A DNA stretch of 64,000 bases from Vulcanimicrobiota bacterium. Its GTDB lineage: Bacteria > Vulcanimicrobiota > Xenobia > Xenobiales > JADMJV01. The stretch covers positions 3,584,149 to 3,648,148 of the forward strand of contig JBFWNU010000001.1 of assembly GCA_050250895.1 (NCBI GenBank), read 5' to 3'. The notes under the pieces were generated by a model, which saw only the letters and a list, made by a program, of their open reading frames with translations, did no database searches and had not been told where the DNA came from. The first letter of the stretch is position 1. Each line of letters starts with the position of its first letter. Shown here piece after piece: positions 23,839-40,332 of the stretch. A program made the position numbers and the translations under genes.

Positions 23839-23886
23839 AGGGGTTGGTGTGTGTTTTCTCGCCGCCCCATGTGTCAAGATGACCGC

Positions 23887-24777
23887 ATGCCCGACCCGAT
23901 CGAAGGTGTCCAGCTCACCCACCCTGAGCGAGAACTCTACCCTGAAGCCGGTTTAACCAAGCTCGATGTGGCCCATTATTACCGCCAGGTCGGCGGCCGG
24001 ATCTTGCCGCACCTTCAGAGTCGGCCCCTCACTCTCTTGCGTTGCCCGGCCGGTCGAGAGCGGGACTGTTTCTACCAGAAGCACGACAGCAAAGGGATGC
24101 CTTCGGCCGTGCGAACGATCTCTATCGAGGAGAAGAGCGGGCGCGGCACTTACCTTTACATCGAAGAGGTGCAGGGCCTGATCGCCCTGGTGCAGATGGA
24201 CACGCTCGAGTTTCACCCGTGGGGAGCCCGAACCGACCGGCTGGAACGCCCTGACCGCATGGTGTTCGATCTCGATCCCGGCCCCCAGTTGGGTCTGGTC
24301 GATGTCAGTGGGGCAGCGTTGGCCGTCCGGGGCCTGCTCGAGGAACTCGAACTGCAGTCGTTTGTACGCTTATCCGGAGGGAAAGGGATTCACGTAGTGG
24401 CGCCGCTTCTGCGCAATCACGACTGGGATGAAGTGAAGACCTTCGCGCGCGGCGTGGCCGAGCGGCTGGCCCGAACCGAGCCCTCGCGCTACACCACCAA
24501 TCCTCGCAAGTCGGAACGTCAGGGACGAATCTTCGTGGACTATCTACGCAACAGCCGGGGAGCTACCTCGATCGCCAGCTATTCATGCCGGGCCCGAGCG
24601 GGGGGGCCGCTGGCCTGGCCCGTGAGTTGGAGCGAACTCGAAGACGGTACCGCCCGACCGAGAACGGTGTCCGACATCCTCGACCACGACCTACCCGAGG
24701 ATCCCTGGCAGGACTTTTTCACTCTGCGCCAGGCCCTGAAGAAGAGGGCCCGACGGCAGCTAGGGCGAGGGGCTTAG
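23887..24777 (+). CDS. Stand-alone LigD primase-polymerase domain protein (NHEJ)
   Basis: LTHPERELYP, TKLDVAHYY, FYQKH, PDRMVFDLDPG, SGGKGIHV, IFVDYLRN. Confidence 0.93.
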   Translation: MPDPIEGVQLTHPERELYPEAGLTKLDVAHYYRQVGGRILPHLQSRPLTLLRCPAGRERDCFYQKHDSKGMPSAVRTISIEEKSGRGTYLYIEEVQGLIALVQMDTLEFHPWGARTDRLERPDRMVFDLDPGPQLGLVDVSGAALAVRGLLEELELQSFVRLSGGKGIHVVAPLLRNHDWDEVKTFARGVAERLARTEPSRYTTNPRKSERQGRIFVDYLRNSRGATSIASYSCRARAGGPLAWPVSWSELEDGTARPRTVSDILDHDLPEDPWQDFFTLRQALKKRARRQLGRGA

Positions 24778-25235: not shown

Positions 25236-25760
25236 ATGGCTAAGACAGAGAAGAAGATTTCCTGGTGGTCCGCCAGTATCGTTACCATACTTTTGCTGGC
25301 GGCCGGTGCGTTCGGCGTCTGGAAGTTGAATGGAGGCGCCGCGCCTTTTGAGAAGCAGGCCACCCAGCCGAACCCCGAGCAAGACCTGATGGTCCTCACC
25401 CAATATCCCGATCACTTCGTCGGCCAGCGGATTTCGTCGACGGCCCAGATCGAAGAGGTGGTGGACGAGCGCATGGTCTGGCTGACCGATGAGGTGGGTC
25501 GACAGCACGTGTTGGCAATCATCCTGCCGCTCGAGTCGCTTCGACCCGGTCAGGCCGTAACACTGCGCGGCACCCTTTATCGAGCTGACGACACTCACAC
25601 TTTGAACACCGATGGGCTCAGCGAAGAGGCACTCGCGCTCCTGCACCGCACCAAGTATTACATGCGGGTGGACGCTATTGCGCCGGTCGACGAGTCGGCC
25701 TCGGATTGGCGCGAGGATTCACCCCTGGAACCCGAGCGCGTGCCGCAGGTGGCCAACTAG
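25236..25760 (+). CDS. Membrane-anchored hypothetical protein (possible OB-fold)
   Basis: GGAGG SD; N-terminal TM; YPDHFVGQRISSTAQIEEV...GQAVTLRGTL. Confidence 0.7.
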   Translation: MAKTEKKISWWSASIVTILLLAAGAFGVWKLNGGAAPFEKQATQPNPEQDLMVLTQYPDHFVGQRISSTAQIEEVVDERMVWLTDEVGRQHVLAIILPLESLRPGQAVTLRGTLYRADDTHTLNTDGLSEEALALLHRTKYYMRVDAIAPVDESASDWREDSPLEPERVPQVAN

Positions 25761-26695
25761 CGCTGTCCCCCCAACATGCCCGTGGTGGTGTAGAAAGGCG
25801 CCCAAAAGGCAACCAGCGCCAGCGCTACCGGCAGGCCGAGCAAGAGCAGAGCCAGCGGCCGGCACAAGCGTTGGGCTTTCTCGGTGAGGTATTCTACCTC
25901 GGTCTCGAGGATGTTGGCCCCCAACAACAACTCGTCGGCCAGGTGGTGCTCGCTCGTGAGCGCCACCCGCACCACCGGGTCGAGCCCCAGCCCGGCACTG
26001 GCCCCAGCCAGGTCCAGGCCTCGCTCCATCAGCACCGAAAGCTGTTGGAACGGGGCGCTCTCGCCTGGTTCGAGCACGGCTTCGGCCAGGGGCAAAGACT
26101 CGTGCAGACTGCGACCGCCCGCGATCAAAGTGGCCATCGAACGCAGCCACAGACTCTGCTGAGCCTTGCGCCGAATGTGCGTCAACCAGGGCAACGCCGC
26201 GAGCACGCGGGCGCGGGCCTGCGTCCAGGTATGCAGCGCCGCCGTGGCCGCTGCCAGGGCGATGGCCGCGACTTGTAACCAGACCGCGTTCGGCGGCGAT
26301 AGATTGGCCGCCACCAACATCGGCCACACTACCACCGGCAGAATGTAGCCCAGCAGAAACACGAGCAGACAGACAATTCCGTCGAGCACCATCAGAGGAT
26401 AAGAAAGTGCCGCTACCAACCGGCGATCGAGCCGGTCCTTGAGTTCGAGCCAGTCAGAAAGGCTGCTCAGCACGGCCGCCGGCTCGGGGGTGCGTTCGGC
26501 CGTGGTCACCACCGCTCGGTAATACTCCGAGAATCGCTCGGGTTGGCGGGCCAGGGCCTGGCCCAGGGTGTCGCCCGAGGCCACCGCTTCGGCCAACTCA
26601 GGTTCACCCACCAGTCGAAGCGCTTCATCGAGCGGTTGACCCAATCGGCAGCTGATGGCCAGAAAGCGCGTGGCTTCTACCAATTGCAGGCTCAT
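25757..26695 (-). CDS. Type II secretion F (GspF/PilC) family protein, cassette B position 3
   Basis: RLGQPLDEAL, SGDTLGQALARQPERFS, AALSYP, second domain GRSLHESL...GLDLA; ATGA overlap. Confidence 0.85.
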   Translation of the reverse strand: MSLQLVEATRFLAISCRLGQPLDEALRLVGEPELAEAVASGDTLGQALARQPERFSEYYRAVVTTAERTPEPAAVLSSLSDWLELKDRLDRRLVAALSYPLMVLDGIVCLLVFLLGYILPVVVWPMLVAANLSPPNAVWLQVAAIALAAATAALHTWTQARARVLAALPWLTHIRRKAQQSLWLRSMATLIAGGRSLHESLPLAEAVLEPGESAPFQQLSVLMERGLDLAGASAGLGLDPVVRVALTSEHHLADELLLGANILETEVEYLTEKAQRLCRPLALLLLGLPVALALVAFWAPFYTTTGMLGGQR

Positions 26696-27411
26696 GGATG
26701 GATCCCCGGATAGGCCTGCCACCACAACAGGGCCACCAAAAGTCCCAGACCTACCAGCAACACGGGCTCGAGCCACCCCAACAGCCAACCCCAACCCCAG
26801 TCGGCCCGCCGCTCCAGCAGAGCGGCCACGCGACCGGCCGCTCCCGGCAGCCTCAGCAGTGGAGCCAGCGGATCGCGACCAAAGGCCTGCTCCAAGGTGG
26901 CTCCTCGCTCGAGTTGTTGGCAGACCATCCCAGCCTCGGTGCGCCACCGTTTGAGGCCGGCCCGTTCCCGGGCCAGTTTGGCCGCCGTCGGCAGCGGATA
27001 GCCCTGAGCCGTCAGCACCTCGAGCCAGATGAGAAAGTCGGCTTGCTCCCGCCAGGGTGGCATCGGGCGATACCAGAGCGCGAGCGGCACCAGGGCCAGA
27101 GTCATCCCGACCACCATCGTCCCCTGCCCTAAACCGAGCGCTAACAGGCTCCACAAAGCCAGCACCAAAAGGGGATAGGCTAGCTCGACCCCCAGCCGGC
27201 GGCCTCGCCCCCGAGCCATTTCGGCGCCGCGAGCGCGGGCCTCGAGGGTCGTCACCAGGTCGTCACTTTCGTGATCCAACCCCAGCACCTCGGCCACCGA
27301 GTCGCCTCGGGCCAGGCGCTCGGCCAGATCGGGGCGCGAGCAGGCGACGGCTTCGGGCAGGGTCAGTCCCTGACGCAGCCGGCGAGCGGTCTTGCGATCG
27401 AAATCGTTCAC
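26692..27411 (-). CDS. GspF/PilC family protein (compact, 239 aa), cassette B position 2
   Basis: QGLTLPEAV, ELAYP, QGYPLPTA, LERGATLEQAF, WLEPVLLV; GTGA overlap. Confidence 0.75.
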   Translation of the reverse strand: MNDFDRKTARRLRQGLTLPEAVACSRPDLAERLARGDSVAEVLGLDHESDDLVTTLEARARGAEMARGRGRRLGVELAYPLLVLALWSLLALGLGQGTMVVGMTLALVPLALWYRPMPPWREQADFLIWLEVLTAQGYPLPTAAKLARERAGLKRWRTEAGMVCQQLERGATLEQAFGRDPLAPLLRLPGAAGRVAALLERRADWGWGWLLGWLEPVLLVGLGLLVALLWWQAYPGIHP

Positions 27412-28913
27412 GGCAGCAAGAACTCTCCAAAGCCTACCGTCAGCACATGTTGATACGGCATGATACAGAGCACGCAAACCGCCAGAACCACCACGCCGGC
27501 GGCCACCGTCAGTCCGGTATCGACCTGTTCGCCCAGTCGAATGATGGCGTTTTCGTATTCTTCATTTTGCAGTCGTGAGGCCGCCTCGAGGGCCTCGGGC
27601 AGCTGGCCGCTGGCCTCGCCCGCCCGGATGAGAAAGTGGACGCGGGGGGGAAAGAACTCGGCGAATTCCTCCAGCAACTGGCTGATTCCCGAGCCCCGGT
27701 GGGCGGCCTTGCGCAGCTGGTCGGCCAGGCGGCGTTCTTCCAACGCCTGGCTGGCGATCTCGAGGGCAGCCGTGGTGGGAATACCCAAACGCAACAGGCC
27801 CGACAAGGTTCCCAACAACTGAGCTCGCTGTCCCAGGCGAGCCAGCCGGGCCGGAAAGAGCCGGGCCGAGATGGCCGTGAACAGCCGTCCGCGCACGTCA
27901 GGCAGAAACGCGAGCACCAGGAAGAGCACTGCCGCCATGGCCATGAGAAAGCCGTTCTCGAACAGTCCTTGCAGCCACAGCGAGGCTCTCACCGAGAGCG
28001 GCGATGGACCGGGTTGATCGTGGAGCATCGAGGCCAGCGGGGCCAGGGTATAGGTCATGTTGAAGGCCAGGATCAAGAAGGCCATCACCACCAGAGCCAG
28101 ATGGCGCACCGCCAGCATGGGGCGTTTGCGGCTTTCGAGGTGGGCCAGTTGCCGCAGGGCCGCCGGCAGCGAGGCCGAGTGGGTGAGTTCGAGCAGGCGG
28201 GGCCAATAGGACGGAAAGGTCACTCGCCTGCGCAAGGCCGTCGAGAGATGTTCGCCCCGGGCCACCGCCTGGCCGATATCGGCTAAGCCAAGGTTGTTCG
28301 AGATCCTGGCCAGCAGCGCGTTTTCTTCCAGGGTCACGCGAAGGTCCTCGAGCGCCTCGGCCAGACTCAAGCCCATCTCCAGGCGGCCGGCCAGTTCGGC
28401 CGCCAACAGCTCGCGGTCGAGCGACTGGCCCCGCGAGATCAACAGGTCGAGGTTGGCCCAGGCGATTTGCAGCGCGCCGGTGATGAGCGCCGTCAAGACC
28501 AGCGGACCCCAGATCAGTTCTCCCTCGTCATCGGGCACCAGCATGAGCAGCAGCACGAGCTGTACGACCAGGGCCAAAAACCAGTGGCCCACCAGCGCCA
28601 GCCGGCGACGCCACGGCGGATCCTCGTCGCGATAGGCGGCCAGCCAGCTGTGGATCAAGAGAAACCAGAGGGTCAGGATGACCATGCACAGGGCCACGGT
28701 CGAATCGAGGCCCGCGCTGACCAGACCGGCCAGCAGTACCATGGCGGCCACGGTCGGATTGGCCAGGCTATCGATGAAGCGTCGGGTCACCACCAGGGCG
28801 CCCAGGGCAAAAAGCCCGAAGAAGTAGCCCAGGGTCGGATTGGCGCCGTAGTTGAACCAGCAGAACAGATAGAACAGGCCCCAGCCGCGCACTAAAAAGA
28901 TGGGTCGCTTCAC
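27408..28913 (-). CDS. GspF/PilC family protein with extra N-terminal TM region, cassette B position 1
   Basis: LEMGLSLAEAL, RGEHLSTAL, GIPTTAAL, GEASGQLPEAL; about 170-aa hydrophobic N-terminal extension; GTGA overlap. Confidence 0.82.
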   Translation of the reverse strand: MKRPIFLVRGWGLFYLFCWFNYGANPTLGYFFGLFALGALVVTRRFIDSLANPTVAAMVLLAGLVSAGLDSTVALCMVILTLWFLLIHSWLAAYRDEDPPWRRRLALVGHWFLALVVQLVLLLMLVPDDEGELIWGPLVLTALITGALQIAWANLDLLISRGQSLDRELLAAELAGRLEMGLSLAEALEDLRVTLEENALLARISNNLGLADIGQAVARGEHLSTALRRRVTFPSYWPRLLELTHSASLPAALRQLAHLESRKRPMLAVRHLALVVMAFLILAFNMTYTLAPLASMLHDQPGPSPLSVRASLWLQGLFENGFLMAMAAVLFLVLAFLPDVRGRLFTAISARLFPARLARLGQRAQLLGTLSGLLRLGIPTTAALEIASQALEERRLADQLRKAAHRGSGISQLLEEFAEFFPPRVHFLIRAGEASGQLPEALEAASRLQNEEYENAIIRLGEQVDTGLTVAAGVVVLAVCVLCIMPYQHVLTVGFGEFLLP

Positions 28914-29254
28914 GGCCAGTTGGCCTCTCTTTGACAATGAGTCGAGCCGGCCTCGCCGACGCAGGTCAAGCGCCACCGTTTGCCGCCCAGCGGGATGGCC
29001 TCGACGGTGAAGCCCTGCCCCGGGGCGAGCCTGGGCGAGACGAACTGGCGGGCCGTGGTCCAGCGGCCAGTCGTGAGCATCTTGCGGGCGTAGGCGAGGC
29101 CCGACTCGGCCATCACCTCGGCTGCCTGAGCACGCTTGTGAGCTTCCACGGTACTTCTGGCCTGACCGGTATAGATGTGCAAGGTCAAGAAAAAGGTCAA
29201 ATAGACCACCGCCAGTTGCATCACCAGGATCAAGGAGAGGCCGCGTTTCTTCAC
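28910..29254 (-). CDS. PilX/GspK-like minor pilin (no Glu5), cassette B
   Basis: KKRG/LSLILV class III-like signal; AEVMAESGLAYA PilX-like motif. Confidence 0.72.
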   Translation of the reverse strand: MKKRGLSLILVMQLAVVYLTFFLTLHIYTGQARSTVEAHKRAQAAEVMAESGLAYARKMLTTGRWTTARQFVSPRLAPGQGFTVEAIPLGGKRWRLTCVGEAGSTHCQREANWP

Positions 29255-29676
29255 GGAGTGGCTCCCGAGTAGCGATAGGGCAGGCGCTGCCGGCAGGCCA
29301 GGTATTCGAGCTCGAGGGTCAACCAGGTCTGGCCGTGGCGCTTGACCACCGCGAATTCGCGGACGGGATAGGGGGTCAACGAGTGTTCACCGTGGCGGTC
29401 ACGAAGCAGCAGCTTCTGGTCTTGCCAGCGAAGGTGCGAGCCATCGGCAAAATTCAGACCGTGACAATCGGCATCGGCCCGGTGTTTGCCGGGCAGGGCC
29501 AGGCGGCCGTGGAGCCTGGCTACCAGGGCCCGCGACTCGGCGCGCACGTCGGCCTGAACGGTGGCGATGCGATGCTCGTTGAGGGTGGTGCACAGCGCGG
29601 CAAAGAGTGGTCCCGCCAGCGTGACGATCACTGCCAGCACCACTAGCAACTCGACCAGGGTGAAGGCTCGTCTCAC
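29251..29676 (-). CDS. Prepilin-type N-methylation domain protein (PilW/GspJ-like), cassette B
   Basis: MRRA/FTLVELLVVLAVI. Confidence 0.9.
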   Translation of the reverse strand: MRRAFTLVELLVVLAVIVTLAGPLFAALCTTLNEHRIATVQADVRAESRALVARLHGRLALPGKHRADADCHGLNFADGSHLRWQDQKLLLRDRHGEHSLTPYPVREFAVVKRHGQTWLTLELEYLACRQRLPYRYSGATP

Positions 29677-30413
29677 GGCTTCACCTTCAAGAAGCCGAGT
29701 TCGACCTGGCGCTCTCCGCCGTAGGTGGTGACCAGGCGAATCTGTTTGAAGTCGCTGGGGGCCAATTGTGGTTCGAGGGTGTCATCGAGATAGCGACCCT
29801 CGACCTCGGTGCGGATGCGACCGCCCCGGTAGTCGACCACTACCACCTGGCCGCGGTGTTTCTGGTCGAGTTGCAGCTTGCCATCCTGACCCAGCTGATA
29901 GGCAACCGGACTGAGTTGGTCGGCTTGAGCCAGCAGTACCCGGTCGACTGCCTCGACCGGTTGGTTGTAGAGCTGCACCTGGCCCCGAGCGTCCACCGTA
30001 TGGGCCTCGCCCTGTTCCGGCAGGTAGTCAGCCAGCCATTGGTAGTCGACCACCAGTTGGCGACCCCGCCACTCGGCCGGCAGCCGCAGCCGACTGCCCC
30101 GGCGTTCGAGCGGCGAGCCGGCGGGTGTTCCGTCAGGCCAGAAGAGGCGCAGGCTGCCTTCGACCACCACGACCTGGCCCAGGTCGATCCAGCCGTCGGC
30201 ACCCACCCTCAGCAATCGCGGCGCGACCATGTTGAAGTCGGCCTTGAGCAAGGACTGGCGCGTCTGTTCGCAGGTCTGGGCGGCGAAGCGATAGTCTTTC
30301 TCGCGGGCCAAACTACCCAGCAGATGCCAGGTGAGGGGTTGGATAGCGGCCAGAATCGCCAGGATCGCGATACAGATCATCAGCTCGATGAGCGTAAACC
30401 CCCGTGGTCGCAT
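29673..30413 (-). CDS. Prepilin-type N-methylation domain protein (large, PilV/GspI position), cassette B
   Basis: MRPRG/FTLIELMICIAILAIL. Confidence 0.9.
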   Translation of the reverse strand: MRPRGFTLIELMICIAILAILAAIQPLTWHLLGSLAREKDYRFAAQTCEQTRQSLLKADFNMVAPRLLRVGADGWIDLGQVVVVEGSLRLFWPDGTPAGSPLERRGSRLRLPAEWRGRQLVVDYQWLADYLPEQGEAHTVDARGQVQLYNQPVEAVDRVLLAQADQLSPVAYQLGQDGKLQLDQKHRGQVVVVDYRGGRIRTEVEGRYLDDTLEPQLAPSDFKQIRLVTTYGGERQVELGFLKVKP

Positions 30414-30447
30414 CGCCGCCGTTTCCGTGAACAATCAGCAACTCCTT

Positions 30448-32556
30448 CTACCAGGCCGCTTTGTAGGCGCAGCGCAGGCTGTGTTCGGTCCTGAGCTGAC
30501 GATAGGCTTGCTGCAAGCTGGTCCACTCGCGGGCAGTGAGTGCGCTGACCTTGCCGTCGGCGGCCAGGCGCGTGCCCGATTCGAGTTCGGCTCGCATGCG
30601 CACCAGGTTGGCCGGAAGGTCGCGATCGACCGTGGGTTCGGGCCTGGCCTGGCGCAAGTAGCAGCGAACGGAACGGCGCCCCACTACCAACCACAAGTTC
30701 TTGCCCTCGACCAGTTCTCGGGCCGGTTCGCCAGGGGGCAGGATGAACCCGGCCGTGGCCACGGGAGTGGCCTCGACCACCGTGAGACGATTGCCTTCGA
30801 TGGTGATGCGCCGCCCATCCAGCAAGCGGCCGCCTCCGGGCCACAGGCTGACCAACGGACCCGGACATGGCCGGCTGTCGTCACCGGCAAAGAGGCGTCC
30901 GTCGGCCGTGGCCGCCAACAACAAGCCCTTGCTGGTGGTGGCCGCGGCCAATACCGGCGAGCCGAAAGCCCGGGGAGGATTGGCGAAATCGCGCACGGTG
31001 CCGTCGAGGGAGCTGCTCACCACCCGAGCCCCGCGAAAATGGACCGAGGTCACCGGGCCGTCGTGGCGGCCCACCAGACGAGGTCGCGAGGCGGTGCCGT
31101 CGCGGACCTCGACCCGGCCGTCGAGATAGCCCAGGGCGATCGACTCCTTGGCGAAGGCGAAACAGGCCAATCCCGGCAGCTCCAGCTGGCGCCACGAGCC
31201 GGTTTCCAGCAGTTGGGCTCTCCCGTCGGCGCTACGCACCCCCAGCCAGTCTTCGCGAGGGCTCAGCGCCACTTGCTCGATCTCGTCCTGGCTGCGCACC
31301 AACCCGCCCAGAGGCGTCTCGAGCGCAGGCAAACCTTGGCGTTGTCGCTCGCCGGCTCGAGCTTCAATCTCGGCCGCCTCGAGATAGGCTCGCAATCGCT
31401 GGGTGGCATCGGCCTGAACCGGCTGCGGGGTCGGGACCACCTCGGCCGGGGCCGACGCTTCTTCCTGACCGGACCGCTCTTCCACCTTGCTTTTGAGGCT
31501 CTGCGTGGTAAGCATGGTCAAGCCTAACAGGACCACCAGAAAGACGGTGGAGATGGCCACGGTGGCTGTGTGGCGCCGCAGAAACAGGTTGAGTTGATAG
31601 GCCGTCGTCCAGGGCTTTTTCACCAGCAACGGTTGGCGTTGCTCCCAGCGTCGCAAGTCTTCCATCACCTCACCGGCGCTGGCCGGACGTTGTTGCGGGT
31701 CGAGCGCCAGGCAAGCCTCGATGATGGCGGCCAGCTCGGCCGGCACGGCCGGATTGAGCTCGCGCACTCCCACCAGTGGAGAGTTCATCAGAGTGTCGGT
31801 ATAGAACGCCAGCCGCTCACCGGCATCGGTGAGGTGGCTCAACTGGTTGCGCGAGGCCAGCGGAATGCGGGGCAACTGGCCGGTCAAAAGCGAATAGATG
31901 GTGGCCCCCAGACTGTAGATATCCCAGCTCGAATTGGGGCCGGTCTCGACCTGGCCCAGAGCGGCCCCGGCCTGCTCGGGGGCCATGTAACCCACCGTAC
32001 CCAGACTGCTCTGGCTACCCCCCGCCTGTAGCGATTGGCCGAAATCGACCAGCCGGGCACGCCCTTCGCCATCGAGCAGGACGTTGACCGGCTTGAGGTC
32101 GCAATGAAGCATGCCTTTCTGGTGGATAAAGTTGAGCGCCTCGGCGATCTGATAGAACCAGCTGACCACCAGTTCGGGGGTGCGTTCTTCAGGGTTCTTG
32201 TCGCCCAACGACCCACCCGTCAACAGCGGCATGACCAGATAGGCGGGCTCGTGATTGAGGTCGGCGTCGAGCAGGGTCACGATGTTGGGGTGCTCGGCCA
32301 CATCGCGCAGTCGCTCGATCTCCTGGCGAAAGTATTCCCAGTCGAGACCGAAAGGGCGGGTGAAGATTTTGACTGCCACCTTCTGTCCGGTGCGCTCCTG
32401 GGTGCCCGACCACACTTCGCCAAAGGTACCCGCGCCCATCAAAGCCTCGAGCCGCACCCCGGGGATCTTATAGTCGACATCGCGCGACAGCTCACGCAGC
32501 TCGTGCTGCTCGTCGGCAGCTTGAAAGAGAGTGGCGTCGATAGGTTGCTCGGCCAT
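30448..32556 (-). CDS. Hanks-type Ser/Thr protein kinase with hydrophobic helix and C-terminal WD40-like repeats (702 aa)
   Basis: GAGTFGEVW, VAVK, HCDLKPVN, DFG, GTVGYMAPE, DIYSLG; HDGPVTSVHF...SSSLDGTVRD; ATG 32556 immediately follows the upstream stop. Confidence 0.93.
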   Translation of the reverse strand: MAEQPIDATLFQAADEQHELRELSRDVDYKIPGVRLEALMGAGTFGEVWSGTQERTGQKVAVKIFTRPFGLDWEYFRQEIERLRDVAEHPNIVTLLDADLNHEPAYLVMPLLTGGSLGDKNPEERTPELVVSWFYQIAEALNFIHQKGMLHCDLKPVNVLLDGEGRARLVDFGQSLQAGGSQSSLGTVGYMAPEQAGAALGQVETGPNSSWDIYSLGATIYSLLTGQLPRIPLASRNQLSHLTDAGERLAFYTDTLMNSPLVGVRELNPAVPAELAAIIEACLALDPQQRPASAGEVMEDLRRWEQRQPLLVKKPWTTAYQLNLFLRRHTATVAISTVFLVVLLGLTMLTTQSLKSKVEERSGQEEASAPAEVVPTPQPVQADATQRLRAYLEAAEIEARAGERQRQGLPALETPLGGLVRSQDEIEQVALSPREDWLGVRSADGRAQLLETGSWRQLELPGLACFAFAKESIALGYLDGRVEVRDGTASRPRLVGRHDGPVTSVHFRGARVVSSSLDGTVRDFANPPRAFGSPVLAAATTSKGLLLAATADGRLFAGDDSRPCPGPLVSLWPGGGRLLDGRRITIEGNRLTVVEATPVATAGFILPPGEPARELVEGKNLWLVVGRRSVRCYLRQARPEPTVDRDLPANLVRMRAELESGTRLAADGKVSALTAREWTSLQQAYRQLRTEHSLRCAYKAAW

Positions 32557-32558
32557 GG

Positions 32559-33494
32559 CTACAACCAGCGATCCGAGCCGGCGAAGACCACCGGCAGCCA
32601 GGCCACCAGCAAGACCAGCAGCACGACGAGCCCGGCTCCGGCCAAAAGGCGAGGCTCGGCCAGGGCCAGTTCGCGCTTGTGCAGATGTTCGAGTTCTTGT
32701 TCCATCAACTCGGCGCACTCGAAGAGAGCGATGGGAAGAGCGTCGTGTTGCAGCTTCTGGCGGGAGGCGCCCAATAACAGGGGGTGCAGCCGAGCTTCGG
32801 CGAGCAGTCGGCTGAGTTCGCTGCCCTGGCGGGTCTGCTCGGCTAGCCCGCCAAAGAACTCTCTGAGTTCGGGCCCGGCGACTTCGGCCGCCATGGCCAG
32901 ACTCTCGGGCAGAGGCTTGCCAGCGGCTAGCAGGGTGGCCACCGTGCGAGCCCACAACACCTGGTCGCCCAGTCGCCGGACCCGGGCCACCGGAGCAGCC
33001 AGCAACCAGCGGGCGGCTACCCAGACCACCGCCAGCAAGGCCAGCAGCAACAGCCGCGAACTGGCCAGCCCGGCCAGGGTCTCCAGCCTGGCTTCGTGGG
33101 CCAGCGGTACGATGGTGGTGGGCACGATGCTGAGCAGCAAGACCGCTCCCAACACGGTCACCGCCCCCAGCAACAGGGTGGGATAGGTCAGGGCGGCCTG
33201 CGTCTTGCAACGCACCTGCTCGACCCCCTCGAGCCAACGGCTGAGCCGGTCGAGTTCCTGGGCGGGTTGGCTCGAGGCCATGGCCGCTTCGACCAGGCCG
33301 CGGTAGGCGGGCGAAAAAAGACGCGGACGCCGGGCCAGGGCCTGGGCCAGGTCGTCTCCCTGCTCGAGGTCCGCGGCCAGCTGACCCAGCCAGCGGGGCC
33401 CGTCGGCGCGCTTGAGCCCCTCGGCCAGAGGAAAGCCCAGGCGCACCAGAGTGGCCAGTTGGCGGGTCACGTCGAGAAGTTCGCTGGTCTTCAT
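32559..33494 (-). CDS. GspF/PilC family protein, cassette A position 3
   Basis: TRQLATLVRLGFPLAEGL, QGDDLAQALARRPRLFS, AALTYP, AGKPLPESL; ATGA overlap. Confidence 0.88.
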   Translation of the reverse strand: MKTSELLDVTRQLATLVRLGFPLAEGLKRADGPRWLGQLAADLEQGDDLAQALARRPRLFSPAYRGLVEAAMASSQPAQELDRLSRWLEGVEQVRCKTQAALTYPTLLLGAVTVLGAVLLLSIVPTTIVPLAHEARLETLAGLASSRLLLLALLAVVWVAARWLLAAPVARVRRLGDQVLWARTVATLLAAGKPLPESLAMAAEVAGPELREFFGGLAEQTRQGSELSRLLAEARLHPLLLGASRQKLQHDALPIALFECAELMEQELEHLHKRELALAEPRLLAGAGLVVLLVLLVAWLPVVFAGSDRWL

Positions 33495-34456
33495 CCCAGG
33501 TTTCCAATCAGTTGATACAACGGCAAGAACATGCCGATGATGATGAGGCCGGCCAGCAGCCCCAATCCCAGCAGGGCCAGGGGCTCGATGAGGGTGATGC
33601 CGCGCGAGGTGGCATGCTCGAAATCGTGACGCAGAAAGCGCGCCACCCGGTCCAACGACCCCTGCGGCAAGCCCTTGGCCTCGGCCACACCGATCAGCCA
33701 GGCGGTGCCGTCGAGCACCAGACGATTGGGCTCGAGGGCCTGGCTCAAGCTCGCACCCCCGGCCAGCGCTTGGGACAGCTCCTGCAGATGGCTGCGAAAC
33801 AGCGGCGAGCGGCACGGCTCGGCTGCTCGCCGGCACGCCTCGGGCAGAGGCTCACCGTGGGCCAAAAAGAACTCGAGCCAGGACAAGAAGATGATGGTGT
33901 CGCGCCGGCGGAACCACTCGCCGATCAACGGCAGGCGGTGGCGAACACCGTCGCCCACTGTCGACTCGGACAAGAGCAGCCAGGCCCCGGTAAGAAACAA
34001 GACTCCCAACAGGACGACGAGCGGATTGCTCAGAGCTCGATGCAGAAAGAGCAGCAAAATGGTCGGAGCCGGCAGGGTTAGATAGAAGCCTTCCAAGAGG
34101 GGCGACAGCTGGCCACCCAAAACCCGGATCAAGAACACCGCCACCAACACGGCTGCCACCAACACCAACCTGGGATAGACCAGCGAGCTACGCACCGACT
34201 CAGAAACCTGCTCCGTCTGGGCCAGGGTGCGGGCCAGTTGTTCGAGCCCGGCCGGCAGCTCGTCGGTCTGCTCGACCTGCTCGACGGCCCGCACTACCCA
34301 GTCGGGCGCGTGGCCCGCCGCCAGGACCGCGTGCAGGGCCTGTCCGCGGGCAGCCAGTTCGGCCCCCGGGTGATGGAGCGTCTCGAGCGCCTCGGGCAGG
34401 GTTGCGCCCATGCGCAATTGATGGGCAAGACTCATGAGAACCTGACTGTCGGTCAT
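33491..34456 (-). CDS. GspF/PilC family protein, cassette A position 2
   Basis: MGATLPEAL, SSLVYP, LPAPTILL, RLPLIG, GGASLSQAL, LIEP...GMFLPLYQL. Confidence 0.9.
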   Translation of the reverse strand: MTDSQVLMSLAHQLRMGATLPEALETLHHPGAELAARGQALHAVLAAGHAPDWVVRAVEQVEQTDELPAGLEQLARTLAQTEQVSESVRSSLVYPRLVLVAAVLVAVFLIRVLGGQLSPLLEGFYLTLPAPTILLLFLHRALSNPLVVLLGVLFLTGAWLLLSESTVGDGVRHRLPLIGEWFRRRDTIIFLSWLEFFLAHGEPLPEACRRAAEPCRSPLFRSHLQELSQALAGGASLSQALEPNRLVLDGTAWLIGVAEAKGLPQGSLDRVARFLRHDFEHATSRGITLIEPLALLGLGLLAGLIIIGMFLPLYQLIGNLG

Positions 34457-35646
34457 GGCAAGAAGACCTCGCTGGCGGCCAGTTGATAGATGTCTACCAG
34501 CACCCCGAAAGTGGCTACGCCCAGGCTACCGACAGCCAGACCAAAGCAGGCCAAAATGGCCACGCCAGCCCGGACCTGGGCACGATGGCTCTGCAATTCA
34601 TAGGTGGCCCGAAGTTGTTCGGCAGTGACCTCAAGGACCTCGTCGAGATTGCCCAGGCGTTGGCCCTGTTCGATTAGCCAGGCCAACTGCTCGTCCTGTA
34701 ACAGCGGCTCGGTTCGATACAGTTCGGGCAGGTCTTCATACGAACTGCTTTTCCAGCGGGCCCGATGGGTCACCTGGCCGCAGTTCATGGCCAGGGTAGT
34801 GAGCCGCGACCCGCTCAACTGGCTGGCCAGGCCCGCCTGGGCGGCCACCAGACTGCGAAAGAGGCGGCGGTCGCGGGCGGGCCGTCCCCAGCCAGCCAGC
34901 CACGTATTCCACGGTCCGTCTTCGAAGTAGGCGAGAATCAGTATCCCCGCCACGGCGGCCAGAAACAGTCCGACATAGGCTCCCACCCAGCCGAGTTGGT
35001 AATAGTCACTGTGAGCCTGAGCGCCTTCCAACAATTGGGTGAAGGTGGGGGCGATGTAGTTGCGATAGAAGATCATAATTCCCATCATCATGACGAAAAC
35101 CGTGGCCAAGTAGGCGGTGGCTAAAGGCTTGACGCCCAGGTCTTGCGACTCGACCCTGGCCAGGATTCGCAAAGTCGAAACCATTTGCTCGGGCTGGGTT
35201 TCTTCGAGCAATTGGATCCAGATGGAGGGAAAGTAGTTCGTCCGGGCCATCGCACCCACCAACGAGCTGCCGTGGGAAACGCCTTCGGCCAGTCCCTCGA
35301 GGGCCGATGGCAGTCGAGCGTAGGCAGTCTTGAAGTGCGCGCGGCTGTGGGCGTGCAGGTGCTGCAGCGCTTCCGCCAGTGGCACGCCCATCTCGAGCAG
35401 GTCGGCTAGCTCGAGGGCGAAGACAGCCCGATCATCGCGGTCGCTGCGCCCGCGCACTAGTCCATAGCAGAACGGAATCCCGATCAGGCCGTAAAAGATC
35501 CAGTTACGGCGAAAGAAAATGGCCATCTCAGGGCTGTTCTGTTCGGCCCAAAGCCACAGACCCACCAGCAACAGAGTGATGACGGTGGCCGCGAAGGTGA
35601 TCTTGGCGCGGGCTTTGCGAACGCCCGCTGCGCCCAGTTCTTTCAC
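34453..35646 (-). CDS. GspF/PilC family protein with extra N-terminal TMs, cassette A position 1
   Basis: LEMGVPLAEAL, HGSSLVGAM, IAPTFTQLL, GQRLGNLDEVL; GTGA overlap; start approximate. Confidence 0.82.
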   Translation of the reverse strand: MKELGAAGVRKARAKITFAATVITLLLVGLWLWAEQNSPEMAIFFRRNWIFYGLIGIPFCYGLVRGRSDRDDRAVFALELADLLEMGVPLAEALQHLHAHSRAHFKTAYARLPSALEGLAEGVSHGSSLVGAMARTNYFPSIWIQLLEETQPEQMVSTLRILARVESQDLGVKPLATAYLATVFVMMMGIMIFYRNYIAPTFTQLLEGAQAHSDYYQLGWVGAYVGLFLAAVAGILILAYFEDGPWNTWLAGWGRPARDRRLFRSLVAAQAGLASQLSGSRLTTLAMNCGQVTHRARWKSSSYEDLPELYRTEPLLQDEQLAWLIEQGQRLGNLDEVLEVTAEQLRATYELQSHRAQVRAGVAILACFGLAVGSLGVATFGVLVDIYQLAASEVFLP

Positions 35647-35987
35647 CGGACCACCTCCTCGAGGCGATGGCGCTCTTTGCCGGCTACCCCCACCGAAACG
35701 ACCTTCCAGCCTCCGCTGGCGGGGCTTGCGGTCAGCTCGAAGTAGCCGCCCTGGAACGAAGGTGAACGCCACTGGTGGGCCGGCCGCAGCTCGCCTCGAC
35801 CGGCCATTCCGCGCGCATAGTCAAGCCCGGCCACCGCCAGCGAATGGGCGCGATGTTGTTGCGAGTCGAGCTTGAGGCGATGGTGGGCGGCCTCGAGCGA
35901 GGCGACCGTGCTCCATTCGAGGATAATCAGGAGTGTCATGATTCCCAGGACAGTGATCAGGGCCAATCCCCGGCGACGGTTTCTCAC
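35643..35987 (-). CDS. PilX/GspK-like minor pilin (no Glu5), cassette A
   Basis: RRRG/LALITVLGI; AHSLAVAGLDYA; same length (114 aa) as the cassette B copy. Confidence 0.75.
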   Translation of the reverse strand: MRNRRRGLALITVLGIMTLLIILEWSTVASLEAAHHRLKLDSQQHRAHSLAVAGLDYARGMAGRGELRPAHQWRSPSFQGGYFELTASPASGGWKVVSVGVAGKERHRLEEVVR

Positions 35988-36391
35988 AGGTCGTAGATCC
36001 CCCGATATCTCAAAGTGCGATCGCGCTCTGGAGGGCACGACAAAACGATATTGACCACCAGATGAGGTTGGCGCTGGTGAACCAGAAACGAATCGACCCG
36101 AGCGGTGGTGAGGGAGCGCCCGTCGAGCGTCAGGTTGCCGTCTTGCCAGCGCAGCTTCGAACCGTCGCGAAAATCCAGCCCGGCGTTGTCGGAGGTGATG
36201 GTATAGCCGTCTTTCACCTTGCGCTTGATGTGCTCGAGGGCCTGGCGACTCTCGAGGCGCAGGTCGGCCTCCTGGCGAAAAACCTTGCCTTCGCGCACCA
36301 GCCACATCATCGAGTCGAAGATGGGAAAGGTGATGATGGCCATGATGGCCATCACGATGACCACTTCGATCAGGGTAAAAGCGCGTCTCAT
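35984..36391 (-). CDS. Prepilin-type N-methylation domain protein (PilW/GspJ-like), cassette A
   Basis: MRRA/FTLIEVVIVMAIMAII; GLDFRDGSKLRWQD matches GLNFADGSHLRWQD of the cassette B copy. Confidence 0.9.
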   Translation of the reverse strand: MRRAFTLIEVVIVMAIMAIITFPIFDSMMWLVREGKVFRQEADLRLESRQALEHIKRKVKDGYTITSDNAGLDFRDGSKLRWQDGNLTLDGRSLTTARVDSFLVHQRQPHLVVNIVLSCPPERDRTLRYRGIYDL

Positions 36392-37131
36392 GGCGCCACC
36401 TTCAAGCCGAAGAGTTCCATCTTCAGGCCGTCGCCATAAGCCTCTTCGACGGTGAATCGTTTGACCACGCCGAGGCCCTTGACCGGCTCGAGCCCGGGGC
36501 CGGCGAACTGGCCGCGCACCAGGTTGCGAACCGAGACACCCTGGTAGTCGATGCAAACCACCTTGCCTTCGAGCGAACCGTCCAGCGACAGAAGGTCGTC
36601 TTGCAACCGATACTGCGAGGGGGGGACGAGGCTGAGGCGATCACCCTGGGCCAACCACACGCGTTCGACCCGGGTCACGGCTCCGTTCTCGAGGGCCACC
36701 CGGCCGTTTTGAACACGATGCGCTTCACCCTGGTCGGCCACATAAAAGGCATAATCGACGATGACCTTCTGTCCGGCTAATTTGGGTTCGAGCTGGAGCC
36801 TGCCGCTGTCGACCTTGACCTCGGACGGACCGGCCAGGTCGGCCCCGGCCAACGAGCGCACCTTCAGGCTGGCTGGCTCGAGCGAGCCGTGGGGCAACTG
36901 CACCCAACCATCGTCGCCCACCGTCACCAGCGCCGGTGGCAACTGCTCGAAAGGCAGCGCCCGCAGCGCCTCGAGTTGATTTTCGGCGTTGCGCAGGGCG
37001 AAGCGGTAGTCGGCTTGTCTGAGCAGCCGGGCATGCCCGCGATGAACGCTAAAAGGAACCGAGAACAGGATGGCCATGATGGCAATGCAGATCATCAGTT
37101 CGATCAAAGTGAAGGCGCGTTGGCCAGGCAA
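36388..37131 (-). CDS. Prepilin-type N-methylation domain protein (large), cassette A
   Basis: QRA/FTLIELMICIAIMAIL; colinear with 29673..30413; TTG start uncertain. Confidence 0.88.
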   Translation of the reverse strand: MPGQRAFTLIELMICIAIMAILFSVPFSVHRGHARLLRQADYRFALRNAENQLEALRALPFEQLPPALVTVGDDGWVQLPHGSLEPASLKVRSLAGADLAGPSEVKVDSGRLQLEPKLAGQKVIVDYAFYVADQGEAHRVQNGRVALENGAVTRVERVWLAQGDRLSLVPPSQYRLQDDLLSLDGSLEGKVVCIDYQGVSVRNLVRGQFAGPGLEPVKGLGVVKRFTVEEAYGDGLKMELFGLKVAP

Positions 37132-37257
37132 GACGGACCCCCAGGAGAAAGTTAGTCTATTCTTTCCGATTTGAGCCCCGCTCAATCATGAAATTTGCCC
37201 AATGAGCAAGATGGGCGTTTTTAGCATGGTTTCAGGGCTTCGACCTAGGCTGGGGTC

Positions 37258-37650
37258 ATGATTGTCCATGCCTTGCCCAGAACCCATACCGCCGCTCCCC
37301 GACCGTCCGCCCCGCCTGGGGGCGACTCTTGGGGCGACCGCGTCGATATCGGCGGCGGAGCCGCGGCCGGCATCCTGACCCTGGTCATGGCCGGTGGCGC
37401 TCACGCCTTCGCCCATACCATGGGCAGCCCCGGTCTGGCTTTCGGGGCTGACGCTTTCATCGGAGCCAGCACCGGCTTTCAGATGGCCGAACAACTCGGT
37501 AAGTCCAAAACCGCCGGAGCGCTCATCGGCCTCGGAGTGGGAGCGGGCCTGGCTGCCGCCGGTGTTTACGGTGGCTGGCCCGGAGCCTTTGGGGCCGCCG
37601 CTCTGGCGGCCGTAGTCCGAGGGGTGGTCGTGCCGCGCCTGGTCCAGTAG
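37258..37650 (+). CDS. Gly/Ala-rich membrane protein (glycine-zipper-like)
   Basis: TAGGCT-N6-ATG; Pro-rich leader, DRVDIG, then GxxxG-rich hydrophobic helices; abuts the next gene (TAG-ATG). Confidence 0.7.
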   Translation: MIVHALPRTHTAAPRPSAPPGGDSWGDRVDIGGGAAAGILTLVMAGGAHAFAHTMGSPGLAFGADAFIGASTGFQMAEQLGKSKTAGALIGLGVGAGLAAAGVYGGWPGAFGAAALAAVVRGVVVPRLVQ

Positions 37651-38259
37651 ATGCGGCATGATTGGGAAGAGAACTATCAGGAAGGGGATACCCCCTGGGA
37701 TAGCGGCCAACCCGAGTTGATGCTGGTCGAAGCCGTCGAGGCCGGTCTGCTCCCCCCCGGTCGCGCTCTCGAGTTGGGCTGCGGCACGGGCACGAACGCA
37801 GCCTATCTGGCCGAGGCCGGCTATGAGGTCATCGGAGTCGACCTCTCCGAGACCGCCATCGAAAAGGCGCGAGCCAAAGCCTCGCAGGTTGCCTTCATGG
37901 TGCTCGACATCATGGCCGAGAGCCTGCCCCCGGGCCCGTTCGACCTGGTCTTTGACCGGGGTTGCTTTCACGTTTTCTCAGAGCCGGACAAGCAGGCACG
38001 CTTCGTTGAACGAGTGGCCTCGGTGCTCAGGCCTCACGGTGCCTGGCTGAGCTTGCTCGGCTCGACCGAGGGGGCCCCGCGCGAGCACGGGCCGCCCCGT
38101 CGCAGCGCTCGCGAGATTGTAGCTGCCATCGAGCCCGCTCTCGCGATCGTCAGCTTGCGGGCGGCCGCCTTTCACGACACGCACGGTAACCCACCGGCCT
38201 GGTTCTGCCTGTCGCGGCGCCGTCAACAACCCGCCCAGCCTTCCACGCCGCCGTTCTAG
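37651..38259 (+). CDS. Class I SAM-dependent methyltransferase (TPMT/Methyltransf_25-like)
   Basis: [38 protein letters not shown]. Confidence 0.92.
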
Positions 38260-38295
38260 CCAGGACGGCAAGCCACGGCCCACGAACCCACCAGC

Positions 38296-39501
38296 GTGAC
38301 CGTTTCTGACCTGCTCGAGAAGCTGGTGCCCCCCGATGATTTCGATGCTCGACCGGCCGTCGATGCTTTGCTTGGTTTGGCCCAGGCCCAGCGGGCCAGC
38401 GACCTGCATCTGCGCCCCACCCAGGGCAAGGTCGAAGTGTTGATGCGCCTCGACGGCGTGCTCTGCCCGCGCTTCGAGATTCCGATTGAAGCCTACCCGC
38501 GCCTGCTCGTGGGCATCAAGAACGCGGCCCGACTGGCTTCTTACAAAAAGGCCGTGCCGCAGGACGGTCGCCTGACCCACGGCGACGTCGAGATGCGAGT
38601 GGCCACCGTGCCCACGCATTTTGGCGAGAAGGTGGTGGTGCGCCTGGTGGCTGGTGTCGGCCTCATCCCCTCGGTCGCCAGGCTGGGGTTCACCGCTCCC
38701 GAGTTGGCCGCCCTCGAGACCATGGCTTTCCAACCCCAGGGCCTGGTGCTGGCCACGGGCCCGGCCGGAAGCGGCAAGACCACCACCTTGCTCTCGGTGC
38801 TGCGCTGGTTGGTAGACAAGCATCGCCAGCGCTACTCGGCCGCTCTCAACGTGGTCACCCTCGAGGACCCGGTCGAGTGCGTGTTGCCCGAACTGTCCCA
38901 GACGGCCATCCAACCCGAGCTGGGTATGACCTTTGCCAGTGGCCTGCGCTCGCTGCTGCGCCAGGACCCCGAGGTGATCCTGGTGGGAGAAATCCGCGAC
39001 GGCGAGACAGCCGGGGCGGTGACCCAGTGCAGCCTGACCGGCCATCTAGTCTTCTCGACTCTGCACACCCGCGACAGCGTCGGCGTCGTGCCTCGCATGC
39101 TCGAGCTCGGGGTCGAGCCTTACCAGTTGGCGGCCGGGCTGGTGGGCGTGATCTATCAGCGGCTGGTGCGTGTGCTCTGCCCCGACTGCCGCTATCTTGT
39201 CGACCCCGAGGTCCGCCTGGTTAGCGAATGCCGGGCCGCCGGGCTCTCGCTGTCTACGGTCTATGGCCCGGGCGGCTGCCCGGCCTGTAACCAGACCGGC
39301 TATCGTGGTCGCACGGCCGTGCCCGAGTTGCTCTCGGTCGACGACACGTTCCGCCAACTCATCCTCGAGCGGGCCTCGCTACGCTCGCTGCTCGAGCGGG
39401 CGCGCCAGCAGGGCACGGTGCCTCTGCGTCAGGCCGGGCTGGCCCGAGTAGCCTCAGGCGTGACCAGCTATGACGAGCTGTGCCGAGTGGTGCCCGGGTG
39501 A
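38296..39501 (+). CDS. GspE/PilB family assembly ATPase lacking the N-terminal N1 domain
   Basis: ASDLHL, PQDGR, Walker A GPAGSGKTTT, TLEDPVE, LRQDPEVILVGEIRD, TGHLVFSTLH, Zn motif CPDC...CPAC, GYRGR. Confidence 0.95.
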   Translation: MTVSDLLEKLVPPDDFDARPAVDALLGLAQAQRASDLHLRPTQGKVEVLMRLDGVLCPRFEIPIEAYPRLLVGIKNAARLASYKKAVPQDGRLTHGDVEMRVATVPTHFGEKVVVRLVAGVGLIPSVARLGFTAPELAALETMAFQPQGLVLATGPAGSGKTTTLLSVLRWLVDKHRQRYSAALNVVTLEDPVECVLPELSQTAIQPELGMTFASGLRSLLRQDPEVILVGEIRDGETAGAVTQCSLTGHLVFSTLHTRDSVGVVPRMLELGVEPYQLAAGLVGVIYQRLVRVLCPDCRYLVDPEVRLVSECRAAGLSLSTVYGPGGCPACNQTGYRGRTAVPELLSVDDTFRQLILERASLRSLLERARQQGTVPLRQAGLARVASGVTSYDELCRVVPG

Positions 39502-40332
39502 GCGACGGCTTTGCCGTCGAGAGGGGAGCGACGGCTGCGCCGTCGAGGAAGGAGCCGGGGCCTTCGGCCGGAGATGGGAGCGACGGCTTTGCCGTCGAGA
39601 GGGGAGCGACGGCTGCGCCGTCGAGGAAGGAGCCGGGGCCTTCGGCCGGAGATGGGAGCGACGGCTGCGCCGTCGAGAGAGGAGCGAGGTTCGCTTTGGC
39701 TCACCTCGAGTTCTTGGAGGAGTCGACGCTTCGCGTCGTAATCCAGGCGCAGCTTCGCCGCTGAAGCCTGGGGCCTTCGGCCTGGGGGGAGCGACGGCGG
39801 GCTTTCCGCTAGAGGGGAGCGACGGCTGCGCCGTCGAGGAAGGAGCCTGGGGCAATCGGCCAGGAGATGGGAGCCTCGCGGTGCTCGGAGGGGGGAGCGA
39901 CGGCTGCGCCGTCGAGAGAGGAGCGAGGTTCGCTTTGGCTCACCTCGAGTTCTTGGAGGAGTCGACGCTTCGCGTCGTAATCCAGGCGCGGCTTCGCCGC
40001 TGAAGCCTGGGGCCTTCGGCCTGGGGGGAGCGACGGCTGCGCCGTCGAGGAAGGAGCCTGGGGCATTCGGCCAGGAGATGGGAGCCTCGCGGTGCTCGGA
40101 GGGGGGAGCGACGGCTGCGCCGTCGAGGAAGGAGCCGGGGCCTTCGGCCGGAGAGGGGAGCGACGGCTGCGCCGTCGAGATAGGAGCGAGGTTCGCTTTG
40201 GCTCACCTCGAGTTTTTTGGAGGAGTCGACGCTTCGCGTTCGTAATCCAGGCGCGGCTTCGCCGCAGAAGCCTGGGGCCTTCGGCCTGTGGGAGCCTGCG
40301 GCCGTCGAGGGGGGGCCGGGGCCTTTGGCCGT
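39500..40332 (+). repeat. Mosaic array of directly oriented palindromic modules (REP/BIME-like)
   Basis: GAGCGACGGC(TGC/TTT)GCCGTCGAG at 39500, 39526, 39578, 39604, 39656, 39817, 39895, 40028, 40106 and 40158, plus degenerate copies; 107-108-bp module at 39682, 39921 and 40184. Confidence 0.95.

Follow-up and report, generated by a model that had tools for sequence, protein, structure and literature searches.

A compact, lineage-specific type IV filament operon with three old platform paralogs in the Vulcanimicrobiota

Results

A conserved operon with three platform genes per cassette

We analysed a 64,000-nucleotide stretch of the genome of a Vulcanimicrobiota bacterium (assembly GCA_050250895.1, contig JBFWNU010000001.1; C1:3584149-3648148, hereafter the window, within which positions are counted unless a contig is named). 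It contains a compact, conserved and lineage-specific type IV filament operon with three old paralogs of the GspF/PilC-family platform protein. The platform protein is normally encoded by one gene. Here, a 13-gene run on the minus strand, from position 37131 down to 25757, reads P1-P2-P3-F1-F2-F3, then a Ser/Thr kinase gene, then P1-P2-P3-F1-F2-F3 again, where P1 to P3 are pilin-like and F1 to F3 are platform proteins. A single ATPase gene lies upstream, in the opposite orientation. The system fits the Type IV filament superfamily, with N_methyl pilins, a GspF/PilC platform, a PilB/GspE ATPase and a prepilin peptidase encoded elsewhere in the genome. On balance, we think that these genes encode a compact type IV filament machine with a hetero-oligomeric platform of three paralogs, in which two types of module share one ATPase.

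Eleven of the 12 junctions in the run are 4-nt overlaps of start and stop codons; the other, between the kinase gene and the second P1 gene, is a 34-nt gap. All 13 frames are open, with a third-position GC content (GC3) of 0.74-0.82. The first cassette (A) encodes the platform proteins F1A (34453-35646, 397 aa), F2A (33491-34456, 321 aa; E = 2.8e-23 for T2SSF) and F3A (32559-33494, 311 aa; 2.1e-31), each with two T2SSF stretches. The second cassette (B) encodes F1B (27408-28913, 501 aa; 1.1e-14), a shortened F2B (26692-27411, 239 aa; 2e-9, one partial stretch) and F3B (25757-26695, 312 aa; 2.1e-18, two stretches). All six match PF00482 T2SSF above the Pfam cut-off and align over their full length with two-domain platforms. 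An earlier note on this DNA, whose coordinates are also positions within the window, had assigned all six to the GspF/PilC family, and this assignment holds. Gene models and translations likewise bear out its 13-gene run, with the coordinates, pilin lengths and peptides that it quoted.

Similarity between the two cassettes follows position, as the earlier note had claimed. By BLASTP, F1A and F1B are 31% identical (E = 1e-16), F2A and F2B 37% over 65 aa (2e-6), and F3A and F3B 34% (6e-28), and E is at least 8e-5 for every pair of F proteins from different positions. The pilin-like proteins also pair by position: A1 and B1 are 39% identical (7e-38), A2 and B2 36% (4e-14), and A3 and B3 29% (4e-8). 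We built a FastTree phylogeny of 111 platform proteins, comprising the six from the window, 35 from cassettes of relatives and 70 other open reading frames (ORFs) of the same genome, with two partial rows left out. A single branch sets each position apart (14 rows and support of 99 for F1, 14 rows and 89 for F2, 13 rows and 100 for F3), and F1, F2 and F3 are jointly split from the 70 other platforms of the genome with support of 93. The earlier note had proposed that the three paralogs diverged before the cassette was duplicated, and had named clustering by cassette as evidence to the contrary; the six window proteins group by position, not by cassette, and the three positional branches place the divergence before the duplication. 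The longest end branch of the tree (1.71) is that of F2B.

The cassette is conserved in relatives. With F1A as the query, 13 of 40 relatives gave a match over the full length, at 27-32% identity. P1-P2-P3-F1-F2-F3 lie in this order on one strand in all 12 loci fetched from relatives, and a gene for a short GspE-type ATPase, apparently without the N1 domain, follows F3 in each of the ten loci with enough contig; the contigs of the other two end first. The same layout recurs in three more loci (L105, L107 and L109), which come from two other families of the class and, in the case of L109, from G006, a genome of the window's own family. Across 11 of the relatives' cassettes, the start codon overlaps the upstream stop codon by 4 or 1 nt at 58 of 66 junctions, and two of the non-overlapping junctions belong to a locus (L018) with approximate coordinates. 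Of 36 pairwise comparisons of relatives' genes, 34 yielded a value of Nei-Gojobori omega, and these values are 0.06-0.53 across seven gene families. The ATPase has the lowest omega, and none of the three F genes reaches 1. Selection on these genes in relatives is thus purifying; the earlier note had named relaxed selection as evidence to the contrary.

A profile of F1 matches 14 of 401 genomes of the phylum, including that of the window, at E < 1e-100; all 14 belong to the window's order, and no match of this strength occurs in the largest family (f15, 297 genomes). A P1 profile matches 17 of 44 genomes of the class. The P1 family is rare: in a set of 1.84 billion representative proteins, its profile found 65 matches with E <= 1e-30, and 94 with E <= 1e-10. 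A P1-profile search of 401 genomes of the phylum to which a Phycisphaerae record belongs, with only six candidates scored per genome, returned nothing. Searching for loci with the ATPase gave generic GspE/PilB proteins from many phyla, the best 80 loci being no more than 45% identical and none of them an orthologue of the cassette. A search of metagenome contigs with the P1 alignment, which relied on the generic pilin N-terminal pattern alone, gave 19 loci, none of which had a true P1, with scores of 14-37 on the P1 family, against at least 190 for true members. A search of sequencing runs listed no RNA run, and two DNA runs from one study with small shares (0.16 and 0.09). Separately, two other families of the phylum have the variant order P1-P2-P3-F1-F(2/3)-ATPase-F (L106 in G057, L110 in G048, L111 in G066 and L112 in G054), and the variant cassette of G057 has four platform genes.

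Each platform paralog has its own channel-motif signature

PulF has been proposed to be a homotrimer with a channel lined by transmembrane segments 1 and 3 (TMS1 and TMS3). In this model, the channel narrows at two conserved motifs, Tyr-Pro in TMS1 and Glu-Pro in TMS3, and the cytoplasmic domains each bind to a single N2 domain of the ATPase hexamer (PMC10790770). We mapped these motif positions by alignment to the genome's own platforms, rather than to PulF itself. Among the 70 other platforms of the genome, the TMS1 motif has its Tyr in 96% and its Pro in 100%, and the TMS3 motif has its Glu in 96% and its Pro in 99%. F2 is canonical (TMS1 Tyr 13/14 and Pro 14/14; TMS3 Glu 14/14 and Pro 11/14). 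F3 keeps both prolines (13/13 each), with Tyr in nine and His in four of the 13 proteins at TMS1, and has often lost the Glu at TMS3 (Glu in five, Gly in four, Ala in three and one other). F1 has lost both prolines; Arg replaces Tyr at TMS1 in 13 of 14 proteins, and the TMS3 residue is Glu in seven, Asp in six and Gly in one. Each paralog therefore has a signature of its own, and a platform that combined all three would have an asymmetric channel lining: F1 would contribute Arg, F2 Tyr and F3 Tyr or His at one level, and F1 Glu or Asp, F2 Glu and F3 a variable residue at the level beneath.

F1 and F3 still have a pair of cytoplasmic T2SSF domains and all three core transmembrane segments. The AlphaFold2 (AF2) model of F1A (pLDDT 77.4) has an added N-terminal helical hairpin (helices 6-37 and 39-65) in front of the GspF fold. 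Foldseek matched it to a PilC model (3jc8_Ca, E = 6.3e-4) and to the cytoplasmic domains of PilC, EpsF, OutF and TcpE (TMt 0.67-0.80). F1B, a member of the F1 clade, has four extra predicted N-terminal transmembrane helices. In the alignment, the loop joining TMS1 to TMS2 is missing from F2B, which keeps both Tyr-Pro and Glu-Pro. A single complex prediction of F1A (residues 62-397), F2A and F3A, made with their own alignments and without controls, scored 0.27 against a mark of 0.32 and weighs neither way.

Two old module types are fused in the window genome

The earlier note had described the cassette as duplicated. The two copies are not simple local duplicates; they represent two old module types: type A, with the ATPase gene at its 3' end, and type B, with the order ATPase-kinase-P1-P2-P3-F1-F2-F3. 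Type-B modules also occur in three other genomes of the family (G006, G008 and G012). The kinase gene is immediately upstream of P1 in all four type-B cassettes, and the ATPase gene is immediately upstream of the kinase gene in two of them. In G008, the complete series from ATPase to F3 lies on one strand with every junction tight. In G012, the series runs from ATPase to F1, where the contig ends, and a type-A operon is also present. In G006, a second cassette lacking an ATPase gene lies on another contig; its P1 is directly preceded by a gene for a Ser/Thr kinase with WD40-like matches, and there is no ATPase gene within 5 kb upstream of that kinase. Both module types are thus found on separate contigs in two genomes of the family, G006 (L108 and L109) and G012 (L022 and L133).

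The window kinase (30448-32562, minus strand, 704 aa; PF00069 Pkinase, E = 3.6e-43, plus a weak WD40 match) consists of a kinase domain, one transmembrane helix (residues 333-351) and a C-terminal WD40/beta-propeller-like region, and kinases of the same layout precede P1 in G006, G008 and G012. It is 44% identical to the G006 kinase over 433 aa, and is the best match of that kinase in the window genome (E = 4.1e-93; next best, 4.6e-84). We considered whether the kinase might be a conserved neighbour of type-A cassettes as well, and rejected this: the genes upstream of P1 in type-A loci differ, encoding a PRK-like protein (L013), a DUF5685 protein (L021), a Na/Ca exchanger (L023) and an FAD oxidoreductase (L109), while the upstream genes of L020 and L105 gave no match. 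Hence, the kinase is specific to type B. In a concatenated tree of P1, F1, F2 and F3 from 13 cassettes, which left out loci lacking any of the four proteins (L133 among them), the three kinase-linked cassettes fall on one side of a branch with SH-aLRT support of 94; a previous version without G008 had carried a long-branch warning. Together, the kinase linkage and this tree indicate that cassette B belongs to the old type-B lineage, and that types A and B are fused into one 13-gene operon in the window genome. A recent tandem duplication can be ruled out, because the A and B proteins are only 29-39% identical and are sisters in no tree.

The ATPase gene (38296-39501, plus strand, 401 aa) encodes a GspE/PilB-type protein that matches PF00437 T2SSE over residues 21-397 (E = 4.6e-94); its N-terminal region, ahead of the start of that match at residue 21, matched no domain family in Pfam. 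In a tree, the window ATPase groups with those of the relatives' cassettes (14 rows, support 99), and eight other GspE-like proteins of the genome fall outside this clade; one row of the tree (L020_A, branch length 10, wrong frame) is to be disregarded. The window ATPase lies in a polytomy and is assignable to neither type A nor type B. It is the sole member of its clade in the genome, such that the window genome, like G006, has one cassette-clade ATPase for two cassettes. Since the ATPase gene is co-operonic in relatives, its divergent position in the window is derived.

Pilin-like proteins

Each cassette encodes three pilin-like proteins. The P1 proteins, A1 (36388-37131, minus strand, 247 aa; PF07963 N_methyl, E = 6.6e-8) and B1 (29673-30413, 246 aa; 4e-9), and the P2 proteins, A2 (35984-36391, 135 aa; 1.2e-6) and B2 (29251-29676, 141 aa; 2.1e-5), all match N_methyl above the Pfam cut-off, as the check proposed in the earlier note anticipated. 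A motif scan of the window found prepilin N-termini of the Glu5 type in these four proteins and nowhere else, consistent with the earlier claim that the window lacks a major pilin. The P3 proteins are A3 (35643-35987, 114 aa), which has no Pfam match and one predicted transmembrane helix at residues 7-25, and B3 (28910-29254, 114 aa), which resembles A3 by BLASTP. An alignment of 20 relatives shows that the P3 family has a basic, hydrophobic N-terminus in which Glu5 is not conserved. None of the 20 family members matches PF14341 PilX_N and three have a weak N_methyl match, so the label "PilX-like" given previously to A3 and B3 describes a resemblance only. The only clear relatives of A1-A3 and B1-B3 in the genome (E <= 1e-5) are each other; the other matches are a few pilin-like ORFs (3.8e-5 to 5.4e-4).

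The AF2 model of A1 (pLDDT 89.9) combines a long N-terminal helix and a small sheet with two inserted beta-sandwich domains. The best pilin matches of its core are GspI (3ci0_I, Z 7.4, 79 residues aligned, root-mean-square deviation 2.5), EpsI (Z 6.9) and XcpV (Z 6.5), the three alignments covering 79-81 residues. The insert at residues 132-200 is similar to Ig-like domains of phage necks (Z 9.0). Foldseek found no match for the P1 model in the PDB at E <= 0.001, and a protein-atlas search with A1 gave nothing beyond generic pilin clusters and weak structural matches of a phage-tail-like kind (TM <= 0.38).

Discussion

How the platform might be built

A heterotrimeric platform of F1, F2 and F3 is a plausible hypothesis. 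The case for an obligate heterotrimer, and for a matching of platforms to pilins, rests on the strict co-occurrence of the three paralogs, on their translational coupling and on the complementary changes in their motifs. We infer the following scheme for the oligomer and its stoichiometry, product, ATPase and kinase. The ancestral unit would have comprised P1, with an adhesin-like double beta-sandwich insert, P2, P3 without Glu5, F1 to F3 and one ATPase without N1, all translationally coupled. F1, F2 and F3 would co-assemble, most simply as 1:1:1, rather than as a homotrimer of the kind suggested for PulF, and the resulting platform would dock on the ATPase hexamer. It may load P1, P2 and P3 into a short tip or primer complex, or into a short pseudopilus; either of these might then grow by addition of a major pilin from another locus. 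The pilins would be processed by the genome's single prepilin peptidase, and the one ATPase, inverted upstream, would serve both modules. Use of module B may be controlled by the type-B transmembrane Ser/Thr kinase, with its beta-propeller-like outer domain.

A stricter version of this scheme is an obligate, asymmetric 1:1:1 F1F2F3 platform in which each groove takes one pilin (P1, P2 or P3) to build a defined three-pilin tip, with the kinase choosing whether platform A or platform B engages the shared ATPase. The three-to-three match of platforms and pilins is made attractive by analogy with the model of the Tad platform, in which each platform unit is in contact with a single pilin and pilins enter in threes (PMC12019362). 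As a complete package, we nevertheless regard the stricter version as rather unlikely.

Several observations weigh against our overall reading. No major pilin is encoded in any cassette examined, each having three pilin-like genes; nor did we find a secretin, PilMNO or GspL/M gene in those cassettes, although GspL, GspM, PilN and PilO were not searched as families. The fold matches of P1 are middling (Z 6.5-9.0). Neither P1 nor F1 has an orthologue in a genome of the same genus (G001, 98% complete), indicating that the system is dispensable. The A and B copies are sisters in no tree, yet long branches leave the depth of the duplication uncertain, and F2B is both shortened and on the longest branch of the platform tree. 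Finally, F1A is an exception within the F1 clade: it keeps Tyr at TMS1 (as Tyr-Leu), and at TMS3 it has Gly-Val where the clade has Glu or Asp; the motif argument is consequently weaker for cassette A in the window.

We also considered that F1, F2 and F3 might form separate homotrimers that occupy the one ATPase in turn, each reserved for a single pilin or a single step, such as initiation versus elongation. Homotrimers have been proposed for both PulF and ComGB (PMC10790770, PMC12019362), and the cassettes of relatives have as many F genes as pilin genes. We think this arrangement unlikely. F1 lacks the channel prolines and F3 often lacks the Glu, residues that are near-invariant in the 70 other platforms, such that trimers of F1 only or F3 only would be without features described as essential for PulF. 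Moreover, tight translational coupling suggests equimolar synthesis of the three proteins.

Another reading would make F2 alone the platform, with F1, and perhaps F3, co-opted as a scaffold or stator that replaces the missing GspL/M or PilM/N/O components. Only F2 keeps both motifs, and F1 has acquired either a membrane hairpin (F1A) or four transmembrane helices (F1B). The window ATPase appears to lack N1, the domain that binds GspL in the type II secretion system (T2SS), and there is no PilM-family gene in the window (the GspL, GspM, PilN and PilO families were not searched). Against this, F1 and F3 retain the parts that contact the ATPase and the neighbouring protomers in the PulF model, and we consider a platform of F2 alone to be improbable. 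It is very improbable that module B, or one of the copies, is simply redundant and decaying in an operon fused by an accident of rearrangement: module B does evolve faster (end branch 1.49-1.64), F2B is shortened, the ATPase gene has been lost from between the modules and G001 manages without the system, but the 13 frames have stayed open with their 4-nt overlaps and high GC3 (0.74-0.82), F2B keeps Tyr-Pro and Glu-Pro, and kinase-linked type-B modules are kept in three other genomes.

Comparison with known systems

The cassette resembles the T2SS (Pul/Eps/Xcp) in its GspE-type ATPase, its GspF-family platform and its few minor-type pilins, one of them without Glu5. The core of P1 has its best pilin matches, of middling strength, in GspI, EpsI and XcpV. 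The T2SS platform is itself proposed to be a trimer that docks on the ATPase hexamer (PMC10790770). By contrast, the cassette has three full-length platform genes where the T2SS has one, F1 and F3 depart from the channel motifs, and P1 carries two inserted beta-sandwich domains. The window ATPase also appears to lack the N1 domain, which in the T2SS ATPase is described as binding GspL (10.64898/2026.05.07.723501). No GspC, GspD, GspG, GspL or GspM gene was identified beside the cassette, although GspC, GspL and GspM were not searched as families; there is no secretin in or near the window, and no GspG major pseudopilin in the operon. The cassette also differs from the type IVa pilus (T4aP), in that the PilM matches and the canonical locus lie elsewhere in the genome.

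Tad (T4c) systems provide the one well-known precedent for building a platform from different paralogous gene products, TadB and TadC (CpaG and CpaH), which have been modelled as a trimer of heterodimers (PMC10790770, PMC12019362). TadB and TadC have one T2SSF domain each and originated when a single gene split in two (Denise et al., 10.1101/576694), whereas each of the three platform genes of the cassette encodes a full two-domain protein. The ATPase of the window is of the GspE/PilB type by Pfam, and no TadZ, RcpA or Flp-type pilins were seen, although these were not searched as families. The archaeon Haloferax also has several platform paralogs in one genome (PilB1-C1 and PilB3-C3), but each PilC is described as paired with its own PilB in a separate operon (PMC6491452), whereas in the window three platforms and one ATPase belong to a single operon. 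Denise et al. describe TadB/TadC and some archaeal duplications, and mention other platform duplicates as rare (8% of systems), these having been de-replicated rather than studied (10.1101/576694). Our literature search, which did not cover the supplements of Denise et al. 2019 and Paoli et al. 2022, found no description of several full-length platform paralogs in one bacterial operon, in line with the earlier impression that this architecture is unfamiliar.

Whether the platform is a dimer or a trimer has been argued from models (PMC10790770), as has the way in which it passes pilins on to the filament, and the cassette may be a natural three-subunit form of it. Three different full-length platform proteins, translationally coupled and accompanied by one ATPase and three pilins, offer a direct handle on subunit number. 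If the three were to co-purify as 1:1:1, this would be independent support for the trimer model. Distinct subunits would also allow each position in the platform to be labelled, mutated or cross-linked separately, which is impossible in a homotrimer, and the Arg that replaces the channel Tyr-Pro in F1 bears on the proposed role of the platform as an ion channel.

Genome background and neighbouring genes

The 9.5-Mb genome, in 17 contigs, has 149 T2SSF domain matches, corresponding to 76 platform-like ORFs, nearly all of them one per locus. The only other tandem platform pair is at C7:19325-21812. There are 32 T2SSE matches, nine of them near-full-length at E <= 1e-93. The genome has one prepilin peptidase (PF01478, C1:2278795-2279166), two secretin matches (at C1:929853 and C1:2282742, both at a distance of over 1.3 Mb from the window) and three PilM-family matches (C1:2279774, C1:2099990 and C4:544654). 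All of these lie outside the window, in agreement with the absences reported in the earlier note, as does a canonical T4aP locus at C1:2.273-2.283 Mb. The platform genes have thus undergone a very large expansion. With 76 platform ORFs set against about nine near-full-length ATPases, one peptidase and two secretins, sharing of ATPases, peptidase and secretins is implied. Together with the kinase-linked module, these numbers point to a modular use of shared parts in a little-studied phylum.

A scan of the window for promoters and terminators gave counts that match the shuffled expectation (1 versus 1.2 and 9 versus 9.1). Between A1 and the ATPase gene, 36 nt upstream of the latter, is a gene for a SAM-dependent methyltransferase (TPMT/Methyltransf_25; 37651-38259, plus strand), which was not found beside the cassettes of the relatives' 12 loci (L013-L024). 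Two genes flanking this region are unrelated to the cassette: one encodes a LigD primase-polymerase domain (23851-24777, plus strand; E = 2.7e-87) and the other an M1-family peptidase (40975-42330, minus strand). Just downstream of the ATPase gene, at 39500-40309, is a tandem array of 26/78/130-bp units, each of which contains a short GC-rich palindrome; the array has the look of REP-type repeats, and spurious ORFs cross it on both strands.

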